From the sequence record MT446416.1: DNA of 64,000 nt, one strand, 5' to 3'. A program made the translations under genes and the position numbers. Source of the DNA: Escherichia virus TH47. Positions within the stretch are counted from its first letter, which is position 1; each line of letters starts with the position of its first letter. Below, piece after piece: positions 16,715-63,994 of this stretch. The notes below the pieces were generated by a model. It was not told the origin of the DNA. It ran no database searches and was given only the letters and a program-made list of their open reading frames with translations.

Positions 16715-17509
16715 TTAAATTACATACGGTTTATAGTAATGAATCTCGTTTGCGATTGCAGTGAAGACTTTATTATTAAATCTTTCACCATAATCACGAA
16801 GTGATTCACCTTCTTCGCTTTCAATGAAGTAATTATATACTGGTAGACGTGCGTTGTCAACACCTATAAATGATTTCATGTAAATTTGTACTAAACGATT
16901 CATTCCTTCATTTAAGCATTGCACCTCAAAGTGCTTGATACCTTTGTCTAAATGTTTGAATGCATTAATGATACCACGTTTAAAATCACGCTGCATAGTA
17001 CTGAATAAATTCTCAGGGAACACGGTAATAGGTGACATTGATTTAAGAATGTATGTATCTTTGGCATTCTTAATGTACTCAATAAAGCAGTAGTTAACGT
17101 CCGGCTCAATTGAACGATCCGCGTTATGATACCAGTGTTTAAACTCACTGTACTCAGCAAACTTATGCTGGCGTAATGCGTTACAATCCTCACACAGTGC
17201 AGTTATGTTCTCTTTATCATTACCGCCCTGGAGACAGTCCAGTACATTATGGTCTAACGTCATGCGTACAAGGCGTTTACCTTTAAGTACATAAGGTCTG
17301 AATTTATAACGGTCTTTAGTACTGTGCTTATGTAAAGTGAATACCACATTGGATTCACCACAACAATCACATTTAAAGCCATCACGTGACATTACATGAA
17401 TGAGTTTTCGAGTATTTGGGCCGAACTCAGATTTAGTAATGTTGCCGACAATTTCTGATGGGTCGTAGTATTTTGAATTCCGGCGAATCAATTCATCTAT
17501 AGTGCTCAT
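16715..17509 (-). CDS. HNH endonuclease (264 aa)
   Basis: CDCCGE...LTLDHNVLDCLQGGNDKENITALCEDCNALRQH: Cys pairs plus a D-H..N..N HNH core. Confidence 0.7.
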   Translation of the reverse strand: MSTIDELIRRNSKYYDPSEIVGNITKSEFGPNTRKLIHVMSRDGFKCDCCGESNVVFTLHKHSTKDRYKFRPYVLKGKRLVRMTLDHNVLDCLQGGNDKENITALCEDCNALRQHKFAEYSEFKHWYHNADRSIEPDVNYCFIEYIKNAKDTYILKSMSPITVFPENLFSTMQRDFKRGIINAFKHLDKGIKHFEVQCLNEGMNRLVQIYMKSFIGVDNARLPVYNYFIESEEGESLRDYGERFNNKVFTAIANEIHYYKPYVI

Positions 17510-17947: not shown

Positions 17948-18552
17948 TAGATATTCCTCAATGGTTAATCATCCATCTCTTCGAGATGTCTGTTCGCTTC
18001 TAATACTACGTATTCTACGCGAATGAATCATAACTGTCAAGGACTTTTAATATTGACGGGATTTGTTGAGGACTTTTTCATCCCCCGCAGGGGAATGATG
18101 GTAAGAAAAAAGAGACAATTAAGTCTCTTCTTGACGCTGATGGCATCGGATTTTATTGTATCGTGAATTTAGGACGGATCTATATTGTAATAAATCAATC
18201 GCAAACGGAAGCGGGTTGCTCTGTTTCTCCCTATCACGGTCATATGCAACGGTCACTGGTCTTTTCATCCCAGCACTCACTTAAAACTCCATACAATCGA
18301 AGTTCAAGCTGTCTTATAATAAGACTCCCTTAGCAAATCTGGTAAGGTGCGATCCTTATATGTCTATCGAGGAACTCTCGGTATGCTTATCGGAGTTCTT
18401 TATACAGCCGCATTGCCGTGAGGGGTTCAAACTATGCCCACATCTAACGGGTTTCTTTTGCTGTTCGTTCTGTAGCACAACTCATCTGCCCTCTACATTT
18501 TCGAGTGGTTCAGGATTATTTTATTCTAAATGAGCTACAGGTTTTTTTTATT
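17948..18552 (-). ncRNA. candidate large structured non-coding RNA (strand uncertain)
   Basis: 605 nt with no ORF of 60 aa or more in any frame. Hand-counted 60-nt lines are 42-48% G+C versus 28% for a line in the adjacent gene. Several 6-8-bp hairpins (18079-18100, 18110-18129, 18371-18399). Confidence 0.35.
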
Positions 18553-37391: not shown

Positions 37392-37583
37392 TTAACTATT
37401 TTTACGTTTTTCTGATTCTGGTACAGTTTTCATTTCACCAATACATAGTTCCATGATGAGTACACCTTTATCATTATAACGTACTACATCTTCAATGTCA
37501 AAATGTCTCGCACTATGAACAACTTCAATACATGCATCATCGGGATATGATTCCAATAATGCTACAAGTTCTGCTTTTGTCAT
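37392..37583 (-). CDS. hypothetical protein (63 aa), related to 32664-32879
   Basis: ORF track; promoter 37614-37641 upstream. Confidence 0.55.
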   Translation of the reverse strand: MTKAELVALLESYPDDACIEVVHSARHFDIEDVVRYNDKGVLIMELCIGEMKTVPESEKRKNS

Positions 37584-44605: not shown

Positions 44606-44647
44606 TTGATTAATATAGGAGTATTATACATACTCCATTTTCATGTG

Positions 44648-44791
44648 TCAAGCTTTATAATACGGAAGACTTTTCACTAAAGATTCGGACGTATTATTTT
44701 TAACCCATGTACTACCGTTGTCATTGGATACATATCCAGTACCATTAACAAACTTACGCATAATACCAGTAAAAATGTTCGTATACACCAT
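44648..44791 (-). CDS. small hypothetical protein (47 aa), not in the ORF track
   Basis: MVYTNIFTGIMRKFVNGTGYVSNDNGSTWVKNNTSESLVKSLPYYKA; AAGGA SD; TAATG overlap with the upstream ORF. Confidence 0.45.
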   Translation of the reverse strand: MVYTNIFTGIMRKFVNGTGYVSNDNGSTWVKNNTSESLVKSLPYYKA

Positions 44792-57340: not shown

Positions 57341-57366
57341 AGAAAATGAGAGTACAATGTACTCCC
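57341..57366 (-). terminator. probable intrinsic terminator after the LemA-like gene
   Basis: Minus RNA GGGAGUACA..UGUACUCUC plus AUUUUCU. Confidence 0.45.
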
Positions 57367-57375
57367 AGATTTAGA

Positions 57376-57930
57376 TTATAGTTTAATTACTTCTTGGATA
57401 CCAGTATCCATTGCTTTCTTAGTGCGTGTATCAGAAACTACTGTACATAAATGTTCAATATTTTCACTTGGGAATGTGTTAGTATCAAGAATTTTGGAGT
57501 TCCAGAAACCTTTACGGAACTTAGCATAATCAGTACACTGGTCAATTTTCATTTTCTGAAGATTGTTGAACTGTGTACGTCCTGACTCGATAGTTACCAT
57601 AAGTTCTTGATAAATCTTAGGATCGAGATTAGGAACCTGTTGTTGAATCTGTGACATCACAAACTTCTGGTCAACACCTTCACGACCTTTAAAGTATGTT
57701 TCGATGGTTTCTTTCAATGCATCCTTATACTTATCAGAAACTTGTACTTTTTCTTGAATGACAAGAGTGTATTTACTTAGTTGGCTTTCTGATGCATCAT
57801 AGTACTTTTTAATATTACCTTCAAATTCAACAGCACGGTCATGTGCATCTACATACATACTAACTGAACCAATTGCCATAAGACCGAATACAACAACAAC
57901 ACCAATCAATGCAATAATTTTACCATTCAT
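57376..57930 (-). CDS. lemA: LemA-family membrane protein (184 aa)
   Basis: Single N-terminal TM, then a helical domain ending ..VPNLDPKIYQELMVTIESGRTQFNNLQKMKIDQCTDYAKFRKGFWN, resembling the LemA consensus as remembered. Confidence 0.5.
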   Translation of the reverse strand: MNGKIIALIGVVVVFGLMAIGSVSMYVDAHDRAVEFEGNIKKYYDASESQLSKYTLVIQEKVQVSDKYKDALKETIETYFKGREGVDQKFVMSQIQQQVPNLDPKIYQELMVTIESGRTQFNNLQKMKIDQCTDYAKFRKGFWNSKILDTNTFPSENIEHLCTVVSDTRTKKAMDTGIQEVIKL

Positions 57931-59021
57931 AACTTGTTATCCCTCATATAAAGGCCAATGAAAATAGATACAATCAGTAACAAAATAGAAGCACCGATGA
58001 GAACATCTTTACGTGGTTCCATTTTTACAGACAAGTACTCGAACTCTTTGTTAGAGAGTCTTTCAAACTTTGTGTCAATATTATGCACTTCTTTGGTCAG
58101 TAAGTCAAGAGTTAATTTTTCATTTAATGCATCCATTCGCATCTTAGCATGTAGTTCTTCATTCTTCATACCTTGTGCAAATGATGTGCTATCAAATTTA
58201 ACGATCTTCCCATCAGCATCAATACCAAAGAACATGATAACATCATTCTTCTTACCACCACGCCACGATGCGAGTGTTGCTTCCACAAAATCTACGTTTT
58301 TATAATCATAAACCAAAACTTGGATGTTTACTTGTTTACGTGCACCCATAGTTTTTAGTTCTTCACGCAGATACTCATCATAACCATCTACATTATAATT
58401 AGTAGTGTTGATTACATGGTGTGTTTTATAATAGTCTACCACACTTGGGTATTCTGGTAAAGTACTAAGATATTTCTCATCATACATTTCATGTAATTCA
58501 CCAGGACTAAACAATGAGTTTTTATCAGCGAACAGATAGTTAATATAAGAACTTTCTGCGGCGGCATAATCCCCAATGTTAACCTGTTGCCAGCGGGGAG
58601 GGGTCATTGTACCCTGGCGGTTTACTCGCTCAATCTCAAACTTCCCTACAGTACTTTTTACATACCAGTCAACTTCGTATGAATAATCAAATACCTTATA
58701 GGACTCACATTCACGATGGGATTTCCCCTTACTATCATAACGAGTTCTGCATTTCTCGTGCCACGTGTAATGCTTACATGAGCTTGATTGTGTACAAAAC
58801 TCCTTGTGATTATATTTGGATGTTACCTGCCCATTTAGAATCTCTACATCGTACAATTGGCTGTAGTTGATTGCATATGAGATACCAAGCACAAGAGCAG
58901 CACCAACTATACAACAACCAATATGAATCAACAGTTCTTTAGTACTGATATGCTTATCATACATGTATTTCATAACAAATACAACGATAAGTGAAGGAAT
59001 CAACAGAATAATAAAATTCAT
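57927..59021 (-). CDS. membrane protein with Cys-rich central domain (364 aa)
   Basis: Two N-terminal TMs and one C-terminal TM; CTQSSSCKHYTWHEKCRTRYDSKGKSHRECE; ATGA-coupled to the LemA-like gene. Confidence 0.7.
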   Translation of the reverse strand: MNFIILLIPSLIVVFVMKYMYDKHISTKELLIHIGCCIVGAALVLGISYAINYSQLYDVEILNGQVTSKYNHKEFCTQSSSCKHYTWHEKCRTRYDSKGKSHRECESYKVFDYSYEVDWYVKSTVGKFEIERVNRQGTMTPPRWQQVNIGDYAAAESSYINYLFADKNSLFSPGELHEMYDEKYLSTLPEYPSVVDYYKTHHVINTTNYNVDGYDEYLREELKTMGARKQVNIQVLVYDYKNVDFVEATLASWRGGKKNDVIMFFGIDADGKIVKFDSTSFAQGMKNEELHAKMRMDALNEKLTLDLLTKEVHNIDTKFERLSNKEFEYLSVKMEPRKDVLIGASILLLIVSIFIGLYMRDNKL

Positions 59022-59024
59022 GTA

Positions 59025-59714
59025 TTAGTCCAGTTTAAGTTTATTGAGACAATAGGAGATTTGGATAGCTTCACGTGCTGCATCATACAGAGGGTGATGT
59101 AATTCCAAACCATTAATACCACATTTTTCTACATACTTCACGAATTTAGCTAACTGCACTGACACAATCTCATCCATTTCGGTGCGAGCTTCTTCATTCA
59201 ATAAACGCTTCAGGGTTCGTGCGTTTTCAGGAGCATCATATTTCCACAAATCACCAACATTCAATAGTTTTAAGTGATTAGCTTGTAAAATACTACAGTC
59301 GAAGTTGCAGCCATTTCCCCAAATTGAATGTTCAACCTCTTTACCATAACAATCAAAACGGATATCTTTCCAGAAATCGACAATAGCATTAGAAGTAAAG
59401 ATTTGTTTGGATTTACCATTAGGACCGTACAATTCTGGTGCAACAAGTGCCATAGTACTGGCAACTTCAGCATATGCATTAGGATATTCCTTCTGACATG
59501 TATTCATCCAGAAATCCATTGCACCTGCATCTGATTTCAGCCCAGCGTTGACTTGTGCTTGGTATGGTAACTTAACATATACAAATTGTCTGATATCATG
59601 TTCAGGTTTACTTGGAACAACTACTGCTGCATAATTTGGAATAATAATATCATAACCAGAGTTTTCAGGAGTACCGAGAGCTTCGATATCAACACTAACA
59701 TGACGGCGTTTCAT
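59025..59714 (-). CDS. DEDDh-type 3'-5' exonuclease (229 aa)
   Basis: Exo I VSVDIEALG; Exo II GNGCNFDCSIL; Exo III HHPLYDAAREA (H-x4-D). Confidence 0.7.
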   Translation of the reverse strand: MKRRHVSVDIEALGTPENSGYDIIIPNYAAVVVPSKPEHDIRQFVYVKLPYQAQVNAGLKSDAGAMDFWMNTCQKEYPNAYAEVASTMALVAPELYGPNGKSKQIFTSNAIVDFWKDIRFDCYGKEVEHSIWGNGCNFDCSILQANHLKLLNVGDLWKYDAPENARTLKRLLNEEARTEMDEIVSVQLAKFVKYVEKCGINGLELHHPLYDAAREAIQISYCLNKLKLD

Positions 59715-59736
59715 ATTTCGTTCCTTATCTGTATAT

Positions 59737-59784
59737 TAAAAAAGAGTGCGTTTCAATAAGAACATTATATTGAAAACGCACTCT
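59737..59784 (-). terminator. intrinsic terminator after the TelA gene
   Basis: 11-bp perfect stem AGAGTGCGTTT / AAACGCACTCT with a 20-nt loop, followed by a U run on the minus strand. Confidence 0.6.
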
Positions 59785-59795
59785 TGTGTCAACTA

Positions 59796-60938
59796 TTACT
59801 TGTTAGCTTTTTCAGCAATTTCACGAAGAGTATCTTCGAGTTCATGAGAGAGTTTTGCGATTTCAATCTTAGCACGCTCACGCTCTTCTTTACCTTTCTT
59901 CTCTTCAATCAGTACTGCTTCGATACTATCGATCATTGTTTTATGTACATTACGCAATGTTTTAATATCCACGATACCACGATTATTTGCTTTAGCAGCA
60001 TCCAACATGTTAGTTGCTACCATTTTAGAGTTTACTTCGAGTAAACGGTTAGTTTCATTGTCAATCAGATTACCCAACTCATTGTCTTTACGTTGACGTT
60101 CGGAAATCAACTGTTCAGCCAATTGTGATTTCCATGCTGGAATAACAACTGATTTCAAATCCTCAAACTTAGAAACAGTGTTGAGGTTTACTTTCTTCAT
60201 ACTCATCAGGCGAGGACCACTCAGTTCACACATCATGATAAGACGACGAATCTTATCTTCCTGCTTAGAAAGAGCTTCACAAATCATCTTTTGCTCCTGG
60301 ATTGCAAAAGAATCAACGTCAGGGTTCGCTTGCATTGCTACCAATTCAGCATCTTGTGCTTTGGTAACTTCTTCCAACTCAACTAACGTATCACGCAGTT
60401 CAAAGAGATAGTTTTTGTTTTCGTTGTAAGCAGTGTCTAGCCATGCACATTCCCCATGCTGGCGGTTAATACCAACCTGAAGAGTGTTCATGATTTCATC
60501 AATTTGTTCTTTACTGTTTTTGTACTGATCGCCAACTTTCTGTTTAGCATTAACAAAGAGTTTTTTGACCCAGCCTACGATTGATTTATCATCCTGTAGA
60601 CTATCAATATCAACTGCACGTGTCAATGTCAAGATAGTAGTAATAGACTTACCGAATTCGGTATTATCATCAGTGACGTTAACTTTTGACATGATTTCAT
60701 CAGCCAAACGTCCTACACCTGCCCCAGCAGTGGTTCCGATGGTATTAATATTCTGCACAGTTAAAGCCATACTGTTACCTTTGGTATCTTTCAGTACTGG
60801 AAGTGACTTGGACTGTTGTTCGAAGATATCAGTTGCGTCAATTGTGTGTGCTGCTGTTTTGGTAGTACGTTTGGCAGTTTTGGTTGCTTTGGCTTGTTTA
60901 ACTGTTGCTTTTTTCGGATTGATTTCTTTCTCGGACAT
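59796..60938 (-). CDS. telA: TelA/YceH/KlaA-family toxic-anion-resistance protein (380 aa)
   Basis: Start re-picked at MSEKEINP (GAGGA SD). C-terminus ..NNRGIVDIKTLRNVHKTMIDSIEAVLIEEKKGKEERERAKIEIAKLSHELE closely parallels B. subtilis YceH ..[50 protein letters not shown] (from memory). Confidence 0.8.
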   Translation of the reverse strand: MSEKEINPKKATVKQAKATKTAKRTTKTAAHTIDATDIFEQQSKSLPVLKDTKGNSMALTVQNINTIGTTAGAGVGRLADEIMSKVNVTDDNTEFGKSITTILTLTRAVDIDSLQDDKSIVGWVKKLFVNAKQKVGDQYKNSKEQIDEIMNTLQVGINRQHGECAWLDTAYNENKNYLFELRDTLVELEEVTKAQDAELVAMQANPDVDSFAIQEQKMICEALSKQEDKIRRLIMMCELSGPRLMSMKKVNLNTVSKFEDLKSVVIPAWKSQLAEQLISERQRKDNELGNLIDNETNRLLEVNSKMVATNMLDAAKANNRGIVDIKTLRNVHKTMIDSIEAVLIEEKKGKEERERAKIEIAKLSHELEDTLREIAEKANK

Positions 60939-61020
60939 TGTGTATTCCTCAGTTAATTTAAGATAGTGTTGCTCAGTGATAAACATTCTACAGGCAACAC
61001 TCAGTACTGTCAACTACTTT

Positions 61021-62148
61021 TTACTCTTTATTTCCATACGCCAGGTTACGAATGATATTGGCAGTATCTTCATCAACTGCTTTACCAGTTTGAGCTTGCA
61101 AACGGCCTATGATCAATGGGATAGTGATAGTTTGAATATCAATCATTCGGCTCATATCAATCTGATACTGCTTACTAACACCAACAATACTAGTTTCAGT
61201 CATTGCTGTTGAAATCCCCATTTTCATAATACGTTCAAGCGTCAGTTCATATTCAAATGGATCTTCCAAACGACGAATTGCATATTCACACCCAATCTTA
61301 CCATACTCAAGTTCATTTTTGATTTCACGAACTTCATCACGAATTTCAGTGAATAAAGTCGTAATACCACTAAACTTATTCGTATCGTACTTCACTGCTT
61401 CATTCAATGCTTTCATTACTTTTGGTAAATCAGTTGGCTGTACTTTGATATCAGCTTTCCCAAACAACTTCTGTGTAAATGTAGGCTTCAAAGGGAATAA
61501 CTTTTCCAGTGCTGTTGTAAGGTTACCCATTAATAAACGGATATAATCACTATGCTGCTGTAATGCTGCGTTTAAATCCAACTGACGCTCGGAGATCTTC
61601 TGAATCTTCACACCAACTTCTTGTGCACATACTGGTAGGTTTACATACCAATCCAGAACCTTCACCGGATCTTTTTTAATTGTATCTGGAAAATCCATCC
61701 AACGTTCAATGTCAGCAACCATATCACATTCAGGGTCGATAGGTTTCTTCTTAAGAACAATCGGAGCCGGAACTTCTGGTGAAGTAGCTACTGCTGCCAT
61801 GTTTGGACGAAGTTTACCTTCCTTCCAGTCTCGGTACTCCTTCTCTAACGGAGGAATTGGGAGATCTGGAACGATTCTCACATTTGAGAAATGAATTTTA
61901 TCTTTCATTAAATCCATTACCTTCAAACGGCGATTATCAAAATAGATCTCGTCAAGTGAAAGTGAACGTGTGTCGAAATGTGGATTTCCCAGTGAATCGT
62001 ATGTTCTGTCCACAACAATGGTATACATATATTTTCGATTCGATGAACGGTCATACTGTTTTAACAGTGAGTTAAGAACGTAGTTGAAGTTAAATTCTTT
62101 GATTTCGACTTCTTTACCGTTGTCAATGAAAAAATATTTTCCTTTCAT
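61021..62148 (-). CDS. hypothetical protein, possible distant TelA-like paralog (375 aa)
   Basis: C-terminal ..IDIQTITIPLIIGRLQAQ.. resembles the TelA ..ILNTIPLWKNQM.. region; weak. Confidence 0.7.
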   Translation of the reverse strand: MKGKYFFIDNGKEVEIKEFNFNYVLNSLLKQYDRSSNRKYMYTIVVDRTYDSLGNPHFDTRSLSLDEIYFDNRRLKVMDLMKDKIHFSNVRIVPDLPIPPLEKEYRDWKEGKLRPNMAAVATSPEVPAPIVLKKKPIDPECDMVADIERWMDFPDTIKKDPVKVLDWYVNLPVCAQEVGVKIQKISERQLDLNAALQQHSDYIRLLMGNLTTALEKLFPLKPTFTQKLFGKADIKVQPTDLPKVMKALNEAVKYDTNKFSGITTLFTEIRDEVREIKNELEYGKIGCEYAIRRLEDPFEYELTLERIMKMGISTAMTETSIVGVSKQYQIDMSRMIDIQTITIPLIIGRLQAQTGKAVDEDTANIIRNLAYGNKE

Positions 62149-62188: not shown

Positions 62189-62217
62189 ATTCTACATACA
62201 CACGATGTATTTGTCAA
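62189..62217 (-). promoter_or_regulatory. sigma70-like promoter
   Basis: TTGACA-17 nt-TAGAAT on the minus strand, upstream of 61021-62148. Confidence 0.55.
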
Positions 62218-62230
62218 ACCATTTTTTAAA

Positions 62231-62259
62231 AGAAAAAAGGACGCACCTTAGTGCATCCT
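62231..62259 (-). terminator. intrinsic terminator overlapping the last codons of 62248-63066
   Basis: Minus RNA AGGAUGCAC-UAAG-GUGCGUCCU plus U6; the TAA stop sits in the loop. Confidence 0.7.
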
Positions 62260-63066
62260 TTTGTTACTCTTGTCCTTGTACCACACAAATGTTTTTACTG
62301 GTGGGTACTTTTCATTCTTCGGTGGCTCCGGCATATCATACACAGTTGCATTTCTGAATTTCAAAATGTATGAATCCATTAAACGAATTATACAATAGTT
62401 CATGCACTTTTGTGCACGTTCTTTCCAAAAATGTTTATATGGTTCTGGACACCCAAGATAATCCAATTTGTACATACCCATAGCAGCTTGCATAAAGCGT
62501 TGGGCAGAGAACTTACGCTTGTCTACCTTACTAGCTCGATGCTGGTCACATGTCCAACTAGAGATACCAGGGAGATGACAGAATAAATCAAAACTCACCA
62601 TACTATCAAAGTACTTGTTATGACCGTTCAACTCTCCATAAAATACCGCTTCGGAAACAGTTTCATATAGTGAGTAATTTGTATGTATATGTTCATTGTC
62701 AAATATAGCTTTTAGATCTTTGTAAGTTTCTGGTACTGGTGGCTCTGGTAAAACTTCACCGAACGTCTCTAAGCACCAAATCTTCCACAAGCCTTTCGTA
62801 AATTTTACTTCAAGTTCTTTATCGCTGTCAATATAAAAAGTTTTCTCATTGATAAAAACTTTTCGTGCCATGTATGCTTTGAATACCGCATCAGGGTCGA
62901 TATCTTCACGTTTGATATCGTCCCATCCTTTACCGATTCGAGAAATTTCGAATCGTCTCATATACATCCTACATGCCAAATCTTTAGTTGTACTACGATG
63001 ATACTTGTCGTCTTGATGAAGTTTGGTAGTCTCATGGAGAGATTTAAGCATGTTTAAAATTCTCAT
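62248..63066 (-). CDS. hypothetical protein (272 aa)
   Basis: ORF track. Confidence 0.75.
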   Translation of the reverse strand: MRILNMLKSLHETTKLHQDDKYHRSTTKDLACRMYMRRFEISRIGKGWDDIKREDIDPDAVFKAYMARKVFINEKTFYIDSDKELEVKFTKGLWKIWCLETFGEVLPEPPVPETYKDLKAIFDNEHIHTNYSLYETVSEAVFYGELNGHNKYFDSMVSFDLFCHLPGISSWTCDQHRASKVDKRKFSAQRFMQAAMGMYKLDYLGCPEPYKHFWKERAQKCMNYCIIRLMDSYILKFRNATVYDMPEPPKNEKYPPVKTFVWYKDKSNKRMH

Positions 63067-63743
63067 CGTAACACCAAATACTTCCCATCTTTACCTACTA
63101 CATACTGATTACCGCTACGTAGGACGCTATAACTTTCACCTAGTACCGAACTTAAGCGAGATGTATCTACCTGCGTATCGTTCGATAGAAGCTGTTTTAC
63201 GTATGCTTCTGACACAAATCCACTACCAGTACTGTAATGTAGTTTACCATATGCAGTGTTTAGTGCAAGCATGTGACCTTCTTTAACAACAGATACACCA
63301 GCAAAGTCTAAAAATTCACTGATGGATTTAGGAATACCCAAATCGATACGTTGTTGAATTTCATCAAAATCAACATCAATCGGATCATTCACACCATAAA
63401 GCTGAATCTTCCAGCCAGGATTTGGGCAAATGTTTTCAATAGTTTTGATAAGACGAAGTAGGTTTTCTGGAAATTCCGCATCACGTTCCATTTCAACGAA
63501 TACCTGATAACGACCATCCAGGTTAGGTGTTTCAGCAGCTTCAGTATCAACTGCATCAATTGGAGACTTCTCAATAAAAGATGACAGGTCATATGCAGCA
63601 TCAAAGTTGTTTAGTACTTGAAACATAACAACGATATTACTATCTTCAATCTTAGGAGTATATTCATCTACACTAATAATAGGATGAATCAAATCCTTTA
63701 GTACTTGTGGACGTAAACCTTGTTCATTTAGTTTCTTTTTCAT
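63063..63743 (-). CDS. hypothetical protein (226 aa)
   Basis: ORF track; ATGA overlaps. Confidence 0.75.
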   Translation of the reverse strand: MKKKLNEQGLRPQVLKDLIHPIISVDEYTPKIEDSNIVVMFQVLNNFDAAYDLSSFIEKSPIDAVDTEAAETPNLDGRYQVFVEMERDAEFPENLLRLIKTIENICPNPGWKIQLYGVNDPIDVDFDEIQQRIDLGIPKSISEFLDFAGVSVVKEGHMLALNTAYGKLHYSTGSGFVSEAYVKQLLSNDTQVDTSRLSSVLGESYSVLRSGNQYVVGKDGKYLVLR

Positions 63744-63994
63744 TGCATACCACCTTGTTGTACATCATCAGATACTTCTACATCTAAATCAACATCTTCA
63801 CCAGTAATTGGATCATCTGATGGTTCTTGTGCATTCATAGGATTACTATTGAATTCTGAAGCCATTAGTTTGTATTCATCAAAACTTTCAGGGTTAATTA
63901 AGTTTCTGGGAATTTGTACACGAACCAATAGAACTGGAATTCGTTCATTTTTTGGAATGCGAACAGAACCAGATTGCGTAGCCACACTCTTCAT
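63740..63994 (-). CDS. hypothetical acidic protein (84 aa)
   Basis: ORF track; the start is 6 nt from the window edge, so the true N-terminus could lie further upstream. Confidence 0.5.
   Translation of the reverse strand: MKSVATQSGSVRIPKNERIPVLLVRVQIPRNLINPESFDEYKLMASEFNSNPMNAQEPSDDPITGEDVDLDVEVSDDVQQGGMQ

Follow-up and report, generated by a model that had tools for sequence, protein, structure and literature searches.

TelA, LemA-family and predicted TPM-domain genes in a conserved 4.8-kb stretch of a RaK2-like jumbo coliphage

Genes and signals at the locus

The window analysed here, a 64,000-nucleotide stretch of Escherichia virus TH47 (MT446416.1), derives from a RaK2/121Q-like jumbo coliphage. 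Surrounded by replication genes, five ORFs (A, TelA, exo, D and E) lie on the minus strand at the coordinates of the original prediction. In the direction of transcription, the features are:

62235–62262, minus strand: terminator-like hairpin with a 12 bp stem and a T-run, 3′ end of the preceding 272-aa gene
62189–62217, minus strand: gene A promoter, near-consensus sigma-70 (TTGACA-17-TAGAAT), 41 nt 5′ of A
61021–62148, minus strand: gene A, 375 aa, soluble, no TM segment
60985–61013, minus strand: telA promoter, near-consensus sigma-70 (TTGACA-17-TAGAAT), 5′ of telA
59796–60938, minus strand: TelA-family protein, 380 aa, no TM segment
59764–59792, minus strand: exo-D-E operon promoter, perfect sigma-70 consensus (TTGACA-17-TATAAT)
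59738–59785, minus strand: intrinsic-terminator-like hairpin 3′ of telA, stem-loop to 59742 followed by U6; overlaps the exo promoter
59025–59714, minus strand: exonuclease, 229 aa, DEDDh 3′-5′, Rv2179c-like; first gene of the operon
57927–59021, minus strand: gene D, 364 aa, predicted inner-membrane protein
57376–57930, minus strand: gene E, 184 aa, divergent LemA family
57347–57367, minus strand: terminator-like hairpin plus T-run, 9 nt past the E stop; z −3.2

The region is bounded upstream by the hairpin at 62235–62262, and the exo-D-E operon ends with that at 57347–57367. The terminator predicted between TelA and the exonuclease is borne out by a fold of −20.8 kcal/mol (z −5.6; 0 of 200 shuffles as stable) followed by U6. 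It was missed by a simple scanner because its loop is long, and this loop contains the −10 element of the exo-D-E promoter. TTGACA-17-TAKAAT sites occur seven times in the 64 kb, where 0.1 would be expected, and every one lies on the coding strand; three of the seven stand directly before A, telA and exo. Judged by these promoters, which are sigma-70 consensus matches rather than mapped transcription starts, the region appears to form three transcription units (A, TelA and exo-D-E), each with its own near-consensus sigma-70 promoter. Within the third, a 3 nt gap separates the exonuclease stop from the D start, and an ATGA overlap (57927–57930) with GAGGG upstream joins D to E, in keeping with the translational coupling originally proposed. 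The order A-TelA-exo-D-E is kept throughout the RaK2-like jumbo phages and is therefore not a chance arrangement.

Identity of the five products

The TelA assignment was upheld by a nearly full-length match to Pfam PF05816 (129.9 bits, cutoff 30; E 1.4e-37; profile positions 14–331 of 332) and by PHROG 5890, ‘tellurite resistance’ (1.5e-131). Homologues are found in 283 phage records, often with TerD or TerC. The DEDDh exonuclease call also stands: the protein matches Pfam PF16473 (Rv2179c-like; 37.1 bits, cutoff 27) and PHROG 255, exonuclease, and its motifs D9-I-E11, N137-F-D139 and H206-x4-D211 are DEDDh-compatible.

Gene A belongs to PHROG 13312 and has no Pfam match. A weak resemblance of its C-terminus to TelA had been suggested; BLASTP finds no match between the two proteins, but profile–profile comparison recovers the similarity, rising from 4.6% to 60% and then 77% as the alignments were broadened. 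The final alignment pairs A 176–352 with TelA 73–275 (hhalign 77%, E 2.1e-5), and negative controls gave P = 0.18 and 0.86. The C-terminal ~250 aa of A are thus probably a helical, TelA-like domain, while the N-terminal ~125 aa are confined to RaK2-like phages. Relatives of A number only 30 among 1.84 billion representatives. Its 70 phage records are all RaK2-like, with A just 5′ of TelA in those checked. Residues 126–369 are homologous to gp134 of Klebsiella phage FBKp34 (E 5e-10).

Gene D fits its original description as a three-TM, Cys-rich protein. Hydrophobic segments lie at residues 3–21, 30–48 and 340–358, and four of its six Cys (76, 82, 91 and 105) are conserved in 69–96% of 51 homologues. 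The predicted layout is a TM1–TM2 hairpin, a Cys-bearing beta-rich domain (~57–160), a TPM domain (~195–320) and a C-terminal TM. D has no match to Pfam TPM and a weak profile–profile match to it (8.7%), and the TPM call therefore rests on the predicted structure.

Gene E has no direct Pfam or NCBIfam match and falls below the Pfam LemA threshold, so that the LemA-like label fails a direct search; it is recovered by more sensitive comparisons. The sole significant PDB match of a diverse E family profile is 2ETD, ‘lemA protein’ (E 6.9e-5), and E aligns with 73 genuine bacterial LemA proteins over 136 columns (hhalign 97%, E 1.3e-10). The protein has an N-terminal TM, and its AF2 model shows a helical bundle whose first helix is long. 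The soluble part of D is predicted to be periplasmic, and E probably shares this topology. In D the TM1–TM2 loop and the C-tail are charged, as is the N-terminus in E, a pattern compatible with the positive-inside rule. The conserved ectodomain Cys of D point the same way, as do Cys132 and Cys162 in E, which occur jointly or not at all across 10 diverse homologues.

D and E travel together, with 485 and 482 phage records respectively and nearly the same organism counts. D stands directly 5′ of E at nine of nine loci inspected, and tblastn coordinates give the same order in records common to both searches. The pair occurs in Vi01, ICP1, pVp-1, Ea35-70, Acinetobacter Aci02-2, XacN1, PaBG, RaK2 and a 499-kb metagenomic phage; by listed organism names, its carriers are large virulent phages of Gram-negative hosts and Prevotella Lak phages. 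Members of the D family are also present on large metagenomic phage-like contigs. In bacteria, a TPM gene adjoins LemA at 41 of 78 loci, and Pfam TPM was found in seven of ten sampled genes downstream of LemA (1e-34 to 1e-45). D-E is best read as a phage-adapted LemA–TPM pair, a self-contained module of many unrelated virulent phages. GenBank already carried the TelA and ‘LEMA’ labels; added here are the assignment of D to TPM and the pairing of LemA with TPM across phages.

Possible roles

The sigma-70 promoters, the replication neighbours and the lack of the products in phAPEC6 virions suggest an early, non-structural character. Our favoured reading, held with moderate confidence, is that the 4.8-kb stretch juxtaposes three early units of host-RNA-polymerase type that serve as non-virion host-takeover modules on the inner membrane. 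Units 1 and 2 would supply a cytoplasmic pair, TelA and its upstream partner A with a very divergent TelA-like C-terminal helical domain. Unit 3 would supply the DEDDh exonuclease and then the coupled TPM-domain D and LemA-family E, both with TM anchors in the host inner membrane and globular domains facing the periplasm, and perhaps in physical complex. Both modules would be moron-like takeover genes expressed soon after infection, TelA/A acting on the cytoplasmic membrane from inside and LemA–TPM from the periplasmic face. The membrane might thereby be kept intact and energised through the long jumbo-phage cycle, or its state otherwise altered. LemA-like domains have been described as membrane-remodelling scaffolds (bioRxiv 10.64898/2026.07.15.738315), and YdjH, which has a TPM domain, has been identified as a conserved partner of PspA (PMC11237479). 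‘Membrane homeostasis’ is nonetheless a broad term for such a role, because the functions of bacterial LemA and TPM proteins are poorly defined. That the phage manipulates or mimics the host envelope stress response, as originally proposed, is a plausible inference.

The TPM–LemA pair could instead be a superinfection-exclusion or counter-defence device, in which early, periplasm-facing proteins stop the entry of competitor DNA or neutralise membrane-targeting abortive-infection effectors of the host. Imm and Sp of phage T4 would be the functional analogues. An early-type promoter, an inner-membrane location with predicted periplasmic domains, strict pairing in about 480 records from the large virulent phages named above and the metagenomic contigs all accord with this possibility. 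We consider it unlikely, as no resemblance to known exclusion proteins was seen and PADLOC defence models matched none of the five proteins, apart from a single chance-level hit. Here it is not distinguishable from housekeeping membrane maintenance.

E, and perhaps its neighbours, would be virion structural proteins if the PHROG/RefSeq label were followed. PHROG 1383 is so named, and the RaK2 homologue of E, gp175, was detected by mass spectrometry of purified virions (2 peptides, 11.4% coverage). Just upstream, the 226-aa gene at 63063–63743 and the gene after it have counterparts in the phAPEC6 virion, gp149c and gp150c. The phAPEC6 counterparts of the five products, gp143c–147c, are however all absent from its 62-protein virion proteome, in line with the non-structural products that the original prediction presupposed; identity between the phAPEC6 and window proteins is 89% for E and 87% for TelA. 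In the paper on PaBG virion mass spectrometry, the main text reports 14 identified proteins and does not name gp45, and to that extent the ‘structural’ note on gp45 looks homology-transferred. E also has features typical of an exported membrane protein, namely its TM anchor and its co-varying Cys pair; it shares homology with a family of cellular membrane proteins, and its operon lies outside the structural module behind a perfect sigma-70 promoter. A virion role for the five products is poorly supported, and we regard it as improbable.

The original prediction treated the five genes as one cluster. They might form a single envelope-stress or tellurite-resistance-like system in which the exonuclease would process a nucleotide or nucleic-acid signal in the way suggested for Ter systems. 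In its favour, exo, D and E are tightly packed in one operon, and the five-gene order is kept in Asteriusvirus, RaK2/K64-1, GAP32, Yersinia/Serratia/Erwinia relatives and Salmonella 7t3/Munch. Synteny in a single clade is explicable by simple inheritance, however, and the three units are separately promoted, with a strong terminator past telA. TelA adjoins the TPM–LemA pair solely in RaK2-like phages: beyond that clade the two were never adjacent in the loci examined, and in Lak phage B8 they lie ~87 kb apart. The pair occurs without adjacent TelA in roughly 480 phage records, and TelA without the pair in phAPEC8, phi92, CcrSC, phiPsa267 and others. The one-cluster view is thus not sustained, and a single system seems very doubtful.

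Equally hard to credit is a role for D-E in lysis timing, as a holin/antiholin-type regulator or endolysin-export helper: both are membrane proteins with predicted periplasmic domains, the PaBG endolysin gene lies directly 3′ of the pair and in the Vi01 record the counterpart of D is entered as ‘host lysis protein’, but that label gives no basis, the promoter is early-type, the nearest annotated holin in the jumbo coliphage is ~20 kb off and the pair lacks flanking lysis genes in ICP1, pVp-1, Ea35-70, Aci02-2 and XacN1.

Comparison with known systems

Among the closest counterparts are the orthologous loci 121Q gp65–69, RaK2 ORF171–175 and fEgEco12 g430–434, which hold the same five genes at 81–98% DNA identity. 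Their labels are ‘TelA-like protein’, ‘LEMA protein; bromodomain-like fold’, ‘exonuclease/metallopeptidase’ and ‘hypothetical’. Gene A orthologues are ‘hypothetical’ in every record, and those of D are ‘hypothetical’ or ‘membrane protein’, never TPM, in all records examined. The LemA homologue is more often named ‘virion structural protein’ in public phage records.

The phage TelA shares a full-length TelA domain with the TelA/KlaB/YaaN-YceH toxic-anion-resistance proteins. As with gene A here, a small conserved partner gene lies directly upstream of telA in the xpaC-telA arrangement of Firmicutes. In E. faecium, xpaC-telA affects daptomycin binding and phospholipid domains, and the xpaC phenotype requires intact telA (PMC6811118). 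Gene A differs in lacking both a TM segment and any detectable similarity to XpaC (PF10112), and its C-terminal domain instead looks like a paralogue of TelA. The Ter/TelA clusters of Klebsiella FBKp34, phi92, Caulobacter CcrSC and Pseudomonas phiPsa267 carry TelA homologues of 23–31% identity. In FBKp34 (TerF/TerD/TerD/gp134/TelA), an A-like gene likewise immediately precedes TelA. These clusters add TerD, TerC-like and TerF-vWA genes and lack an adjacent LemA–TPM pair, whereas the close relative fEgEco12 has no such Ter genes annotated in the 20 kb flanking the region on each side.

In the pspA-ydjGHI(L) operon of B. subtilis, the TPM membrane protein YdjH and the Cys-rich (zinc-ribbon) membrane protein YdjG occur in a membrane-stress context (PMC11237479). 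Phage D would combine a Cys-bearing domain and a TPM domain in a single chain. A PspA or band-7 homologue was undetected by Pfam among the five phage proteins. In contrast to the YdjG zinc ribbon, D is predicted to place its Cys domain in the periplasm, a location suggestive of disulfides and not of zinc binding.

The bacterial and archaeal LemA–TPM pairs (YgcG-type; PF04011 + PF04536) offer a close cellular parallel to D-E. LemA is of the same size (184 aa in E, 181–215 aa in the cellular proteins) and combines an N-terminal TM with a helical domain, and the neighbouring gene on the same strand encodes a TM-anchored protein with a TPM domain, predicted in the case of D. The phage LemA is divergent enough to fall under the Pfam threshold. 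The phage TPM protein, too divergent for the Pfam model, is predicted to bear an extra N-terminal two-TM hairpin and Cys-bearing beta-rich domain. Gene order is also reversed: LemA precedes TPM at 30 of 41 bacterial loci, whereas TPM precedes LemA at all phage loci examined.

Arrangement and transcription of the five genes

The five ORFs all lie on the minus strand at a uniform GC content of ~33-39%. The 4.8-kb region that they occupy shares 98-99% identity with the Escherichia jumbo phages Turkey3, Ecwhy_1 and fEgEco12, and 81% with Asteriusvirus 121Q, PBECO4 and phAPEC6.

Features of the region
62262-62235, minus strand: terminator
61021-62148, minus strand: gene A, 375-aa protein
59796-60938, minus strand: TelA
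59785-59738, minus strand: terminator after telA (hairpin dG -20.8 kcal/mol, z -5.6, then U6)
59025-59714, minus strand: exo, 229-aa exonuclease
57927-59021, minus strand: gene D, 364-aa membrane protein, predicted TPM type
57376-57930, minus strand: gene E, 184-aa LemA-like protein
57367-57347, minus strand: terminator

The ORFs stand as the original prediction listed them, but the single cluster that it drew from them does not. The motif TTGACA-N17-TAKAAT occurs seven times in 64 kb, where 0.1 would be expected, always on the coding strand, and three of the seven copies lie directly upstream of A, telA and exo. With the three terminators, these promoters divide the genes into three units: A, TelA and exo-D-E. 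A single co-transcribed five-gene operon is rejected on account of the internal promoters and terminator; the terminator proposed between TelA and exo is real, judging by its hairpin energy and U6 tract. The perfect sigma-70 promoter of exo-D-E is embedded in that hairpin (59738-59792, minus strand), whose loop contains the -10 element, so that termination of one unit and initiation of the next share one 55-nt element. Such near-consensus promoters would be recognized by host RNA polymerase, and hence we infer early expression. The four other exact sites (16832-16860, 18012-18040, 37473-37501 and 44623-44651, minus strand) probably serve other units as early promoters. Within the third unit, three nucleotides separate the exo stop from the D start. 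D and E, in the same orientation, overlap by 4 nt (ATGA) with a GAGGG Shine-Dalgarno upstream, which upholds their proposed translational coupling.

In fEgEco12 the stretch sits inside a long co-directional gene block that is distinct from the head or tail module. On its upstream side are genes for replication (clamp loader, topoisomerase II, helicase, RNase H, DHFR), and downstream numerous small genes of no assigned role. In TH47, the 226-aa gene at 63063-63743 and the gene upstream of it (63740-63994+) match PHROG 'virion structural protein'. They are the counterparts of phAPEC6 gp149c and gp150c, both detected in virions by MS, and sit amid replication-type genes, remote from the main structural module.

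Family membership of the five proteins

Two of the proteins were readily placed. TelA matches Pfam PF05816 at 129.9 bits (cutoff 30) over profile positions 14-331 of 332 and falls in PHROG 'tellurite resistance', making its assignment unambiguous. The exonuclease passes PF16473 (Rv2179c-like 3'-5' exoribonuclease) at 37.1 bits against a cutoff of 27 and carries every DEDDh motif (DxE, DIE at 9-11; NxD, NFD at 137-139; Hx4D, H206-x4-D211), as had been predicted. For A, D and E, scanning against Pfam, NCBIfam and PADLOC returned nothing usable, and the PADLOC defence-system models matched none of the five proteins except once, at chance level (E 0.0036). HMM searches therefore supported the TelA call directly, but the Pfam LemA and TPM models had no match in E and D: E did not match PF04011 even at E <= 10, short of the curated threshold, and D did not match PF04536 at E <= 1.

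The LemA assignment of E instead came from family-level comparison. E had no NCBIfam match, a narrow profile of its close relatives found nothing in the PDB, and only one of ten diverse homologues matched Pfam LemA (E 0.0045). The alignment was then broadened with the genes following D homologues in nine lineages (Vi01, ICP1, pVp-1, Ea35-70, Acinetobacter Aci02-2, XacN1, PaBG, RaK2 and a 499-kb metagenomic phage). In hmmsearch against the PDB, its sole significant match was 2ETD, a Thermotoga 'lemA protein' (E 6.9e-5, two collinear stretches). A 2ETD fragment retrieved 80 bacterial/archaeal LemA loci, yielding 73 LemA ORFs of 170-230 aa. Against these, the broadened alignment scored 97.0% in hhalign (E 1.3e-10) across 136 columns, approximately the entire soluble domain. 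LemA proteins are ~190 aa long, with an N-terminal TM segment and a helical bundle with a long first helix (bioRxiv 10.64898/2026.07.15.738315); bacterial LemA ORFs measured 181-215 aa. E shares this architecture: 184 aa, a single TM segment at 5-23, and AF2 helices at 3-62, 66-81, 88-98 and 104-142. On sequence profiles and gene context, E is thus classed as a divergent member of the LemA family.

D has ~90 cluster-level homologues reaching down to 25% identity; the precomputed Pfam labels of the 93 homologues include no TPM, only one PF07963 entry, the rest being blank. The three TM segments of the original prediction were found again as hydrophobic stretches, and D has Cys residues that are conserved. 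AlphaFold2 gave a confident model from a 51-sequence alignment (pLDDT 91.9, pTM 0.80), in which a hairpin of two TM segments is followed by a beta-rich domain (~57-160), an alpha/beta domain (~195-320) and, C-terminally, one more TM segment. In this model the alpha/beta domain has the TPM fold; for the beta-rich Cys domain, no structural relative stood out in the search. Comparison of the D-family profile with 41 TPM neighbours of LemA gave a weak alignment (hhalign 8.7%, E 0.0038), which places the D motif 'W-GG-KKNDVI' (invariant W-GG-KKNDV) on the TPM motif 'WgiGqK-NGvL'.

Gene A has few relatives, 30 in a set of 1.84 billion representative proteins. The 70 phage records that contain it are all RaK2-like, and in those checked it lies directly upstream of TelA. 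Its residues 126-369 are homologous to gp134 of Klebsiella phage FBKp34 (E 5e-10), likewise the gene directly before TelA. The weak C-terminal resemblance to TelA noted originally probably holds at the profile-profile level, but not by BLASTP, which detected no similarity between the two, nor by Pfam TelA, which matched none of 27 + 22 A-family members. As both alignments were broadened, the hhalign probability rose from 4.6% (narrow profiles) to 60% and then 77%, ending at E 2.1e-5 over 173 columns, with A 176-352 on TelA 73-275 in constant register; controls against the LemA-like family were null (P = 0.18 and 0.86). Given this rise, the register and the controls, the resemblance probably reflects real remote homology. 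Against the PDB, the A and D profiles returned chance matches alone (e.g. haemagglutinin HA2 coiled coil, tubulin). The genes upstream of TelA in phAPEC8 (gp056) and phi92 (gp179) proved unrelated to A, so an A-like partner of TelA is not universal.

The TPM-LemA pair in bacteria and phages

TPM genes often adjoin LemA in bacteria. The gene directly downstream of LemA was a Pfam TPM protein in seven of ten sampled bacterial loci (E 1e-34 to 1e-45). An HMM built from these seven showed that 41 of 78 LemA loci have a TPM gene next to LemA, 30 downstream and 11 upstream. D-E is therefore the phage counterpart of the canonical cellular LemA-TPM pair. In two of ten sampled bacterial/archaeal loci, LemA was followed by an M48 (HtpX-like) membrane peptidase (fetched loci L037, 4505-5392, and L061, 1826-2725; locus coordinates here and below), which hints that LemA may be connected with the quality control of membrane proteins.

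In phages the pairing is strict. With tblastn, D was located in 485 phage records and E in 482, and the counts per organism are nearly the same for both.

Phage records with D and with E, by organism
Salmonella: D 166, E 166
Escherichia: D 62, E 62
Klebsiella: D 55, E 54
Erwinia: D 29, E 29
Aeromonas: D 26, E 25
Acinetobacter: D 23, E 23
Serratia: D 22, E 22
Vibrio: D 22, E 22
Dickeya: D 19, E 19

D lay directly upstream of E in all nine fetched phage loci, and tblastn coordinates gave the same order in records appearing in both listings. Several unrelated phages, including RaK2 (L004, 6881-6909), pVp-1 (L008, 2903-2931) and XacN1 (L011, 2935-2963), have a sigma-70-like promoter (10-11 of 12 matches) shortly before the D homologue; these promoters would be consistent with transcription of the pair by host polymerase. 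TelA homologues occur in 283 phage records. Because TelA or exo adjoins the pair only in RaK2-like phages and, in the other loci examined, each stands without the other beside it, the TelA and D-E modules are evolutionarily independent. A candidate host copy, contig L021 (labelled Escherichia coli isolate H07624-L1), carries a LemA-TPM pair, though a megablast search of 5,426 complete E. coli genomes gave no match; the contig has probably been mis-binned and so provides no evidence for a host copy to mimic.

E is labelled 'virion structural protein' by PHROG 1383, and likewise in RefSeq. As far as traced, the label appears to derive from RaK2 gp175, an E homologue detected in virions by two peptides (11.4% coverage) in a phage more distant than phAPEC6. 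In phAPEC6, whose homologues are 89% (E) and 87% (TelA) identical, gp143c-147c are absent from the 62 virion proteins (Table 1 of that study) and the neighbours gp149c and gp150c are present. For PaBG, the paper on virion MS, with 14 identified proteins, does not name gp45 in its main text. In view of all three data sets, a structural role, the alternative foreseen in the original prediction, is unlikely, and a propagated annotation that appears to trace to two RaK2 peptides can be corrected. In Vi01 (L006, 4001-5110), the D homologue bears the RefSeq gene name 'host lysis protein', with no basis stated, and the adjoining E homologue is labelled 'virion structural protein'.

Possible roles and relation to cellular modules

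Under the positive-inside rule, D would expose its Cys/TPM ectodomain, and E its helical domain, to the periplasm. Cys132 and Cys162 of E co-vary (both in six sequences, neither in four, one alone in none), and this pair, with the conserved ectodomain Cys of D, would fit periplasmic disulfide formation. TelA and A would act from the cytoplasmic side, because both are devoid of TM segments. In cells, xpaC-telA modulates daptomycin binding and phospholipid microdomains (PMC6811118), YdjH, a TPM protein, is a conserved partner of PspA (PMC11237479), and LemA-like domains have been described as membrane-remodelling scaffolds (bioRxiv 10.64898/2026.07.15.738315). Given the predicted topology and these membrane links, the most economical explanation is that D-E and TelA/A may condition or protect the inner membrane of the host early in infection.

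The data do not separate three narrower versions of this membrane reading: superinfection exclusion, counter-defence and lysis timing. Lysis timing draws on PaBG, where an endolysin gene directly follows the TPM-LemA pair (L012, 2980-5218), but in no other lineage examined does the pair adjoin a lysis gene. Beyond general membrane conditioning, we consider it rather doubtful that TPM-LemA is a dedicated, early, cross-lineage module acting on the host inner membrane from the periplasmic side, serving for example superinfection exclusion or blocking membrane-depolarising abortive-infection responses. If it were, the pair, descended from its cellular LemA-TPM counterpart, would represent a class of phage host-takeover or counter-defence system not recognised before, and RaK2-like jumbo phages would have joined it to a TelA/TelA-like pair, self-supplying both faces of an envelope-stress response.

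'TelA-like' and 'LEMA protein' labels already stand on the orthologues in 121Q, Ecwhy_1 and fEgEco12, and to that extent the core finding is already in public annotation. In the literature searched, LemA together with TPM, with phage TelA or with jumbo phages came up solely in passing. What appears to be new is the 364-aa partner as a TPM-domain protein; a strictly paired TPM-LemA module, independent of TelA, in ~1% of phage records, among them model phages such as ICP1, Vi01/CBA120-like, T5-like and jumbo phages; and A as a TelA-associated, probably TelA-like partner. Few uncharacterised membrane-protein families of bacteria and archaea are as widespread as LemA and TPM, and TelA is a long-standing 'resistance' protein whose mechanism is not established. 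The value of the phage genes lies mainly in a tractable entry point into this biology: small genomes and a clean infection time-course offer a genetic handle on the LemA-TPM role, with burst size, lysis, membrane potential and exclusion as easy read-outs. For jumbo phages, they suggest that the virus invests early in the host membrane, a little-studied side of takeover.

D-E and TelA/A are divergent viral variants of known, poorly understood cellular modules, with functions that we infer. Some phage TelA genes stand in surroundings of the Ter (TerZABCDEF-type) kind: TerD, TerC-like or TerF-vWA genes adjoin TelA, without D-E, in FBKp34, CcrSC, phiPsa267 and phi92. The compact FBKp34 cluster (L013, 979-5582) runs TerF-type vWA, TerD, TerD, A-like 292-aa gene, TelA and cell-wall hydrolase, in a record that itself annotates promoters and terminators. 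Around the five-gene stretch, no TerD- or TerC-family gene is annotated across 45 kb in the close relative fEgEco12. D-E departs from the cellular LemA-TPM pair in three respects: the gene order is reversed, the phage TPM protein carries extra fused domains, and both partners are very divergent.
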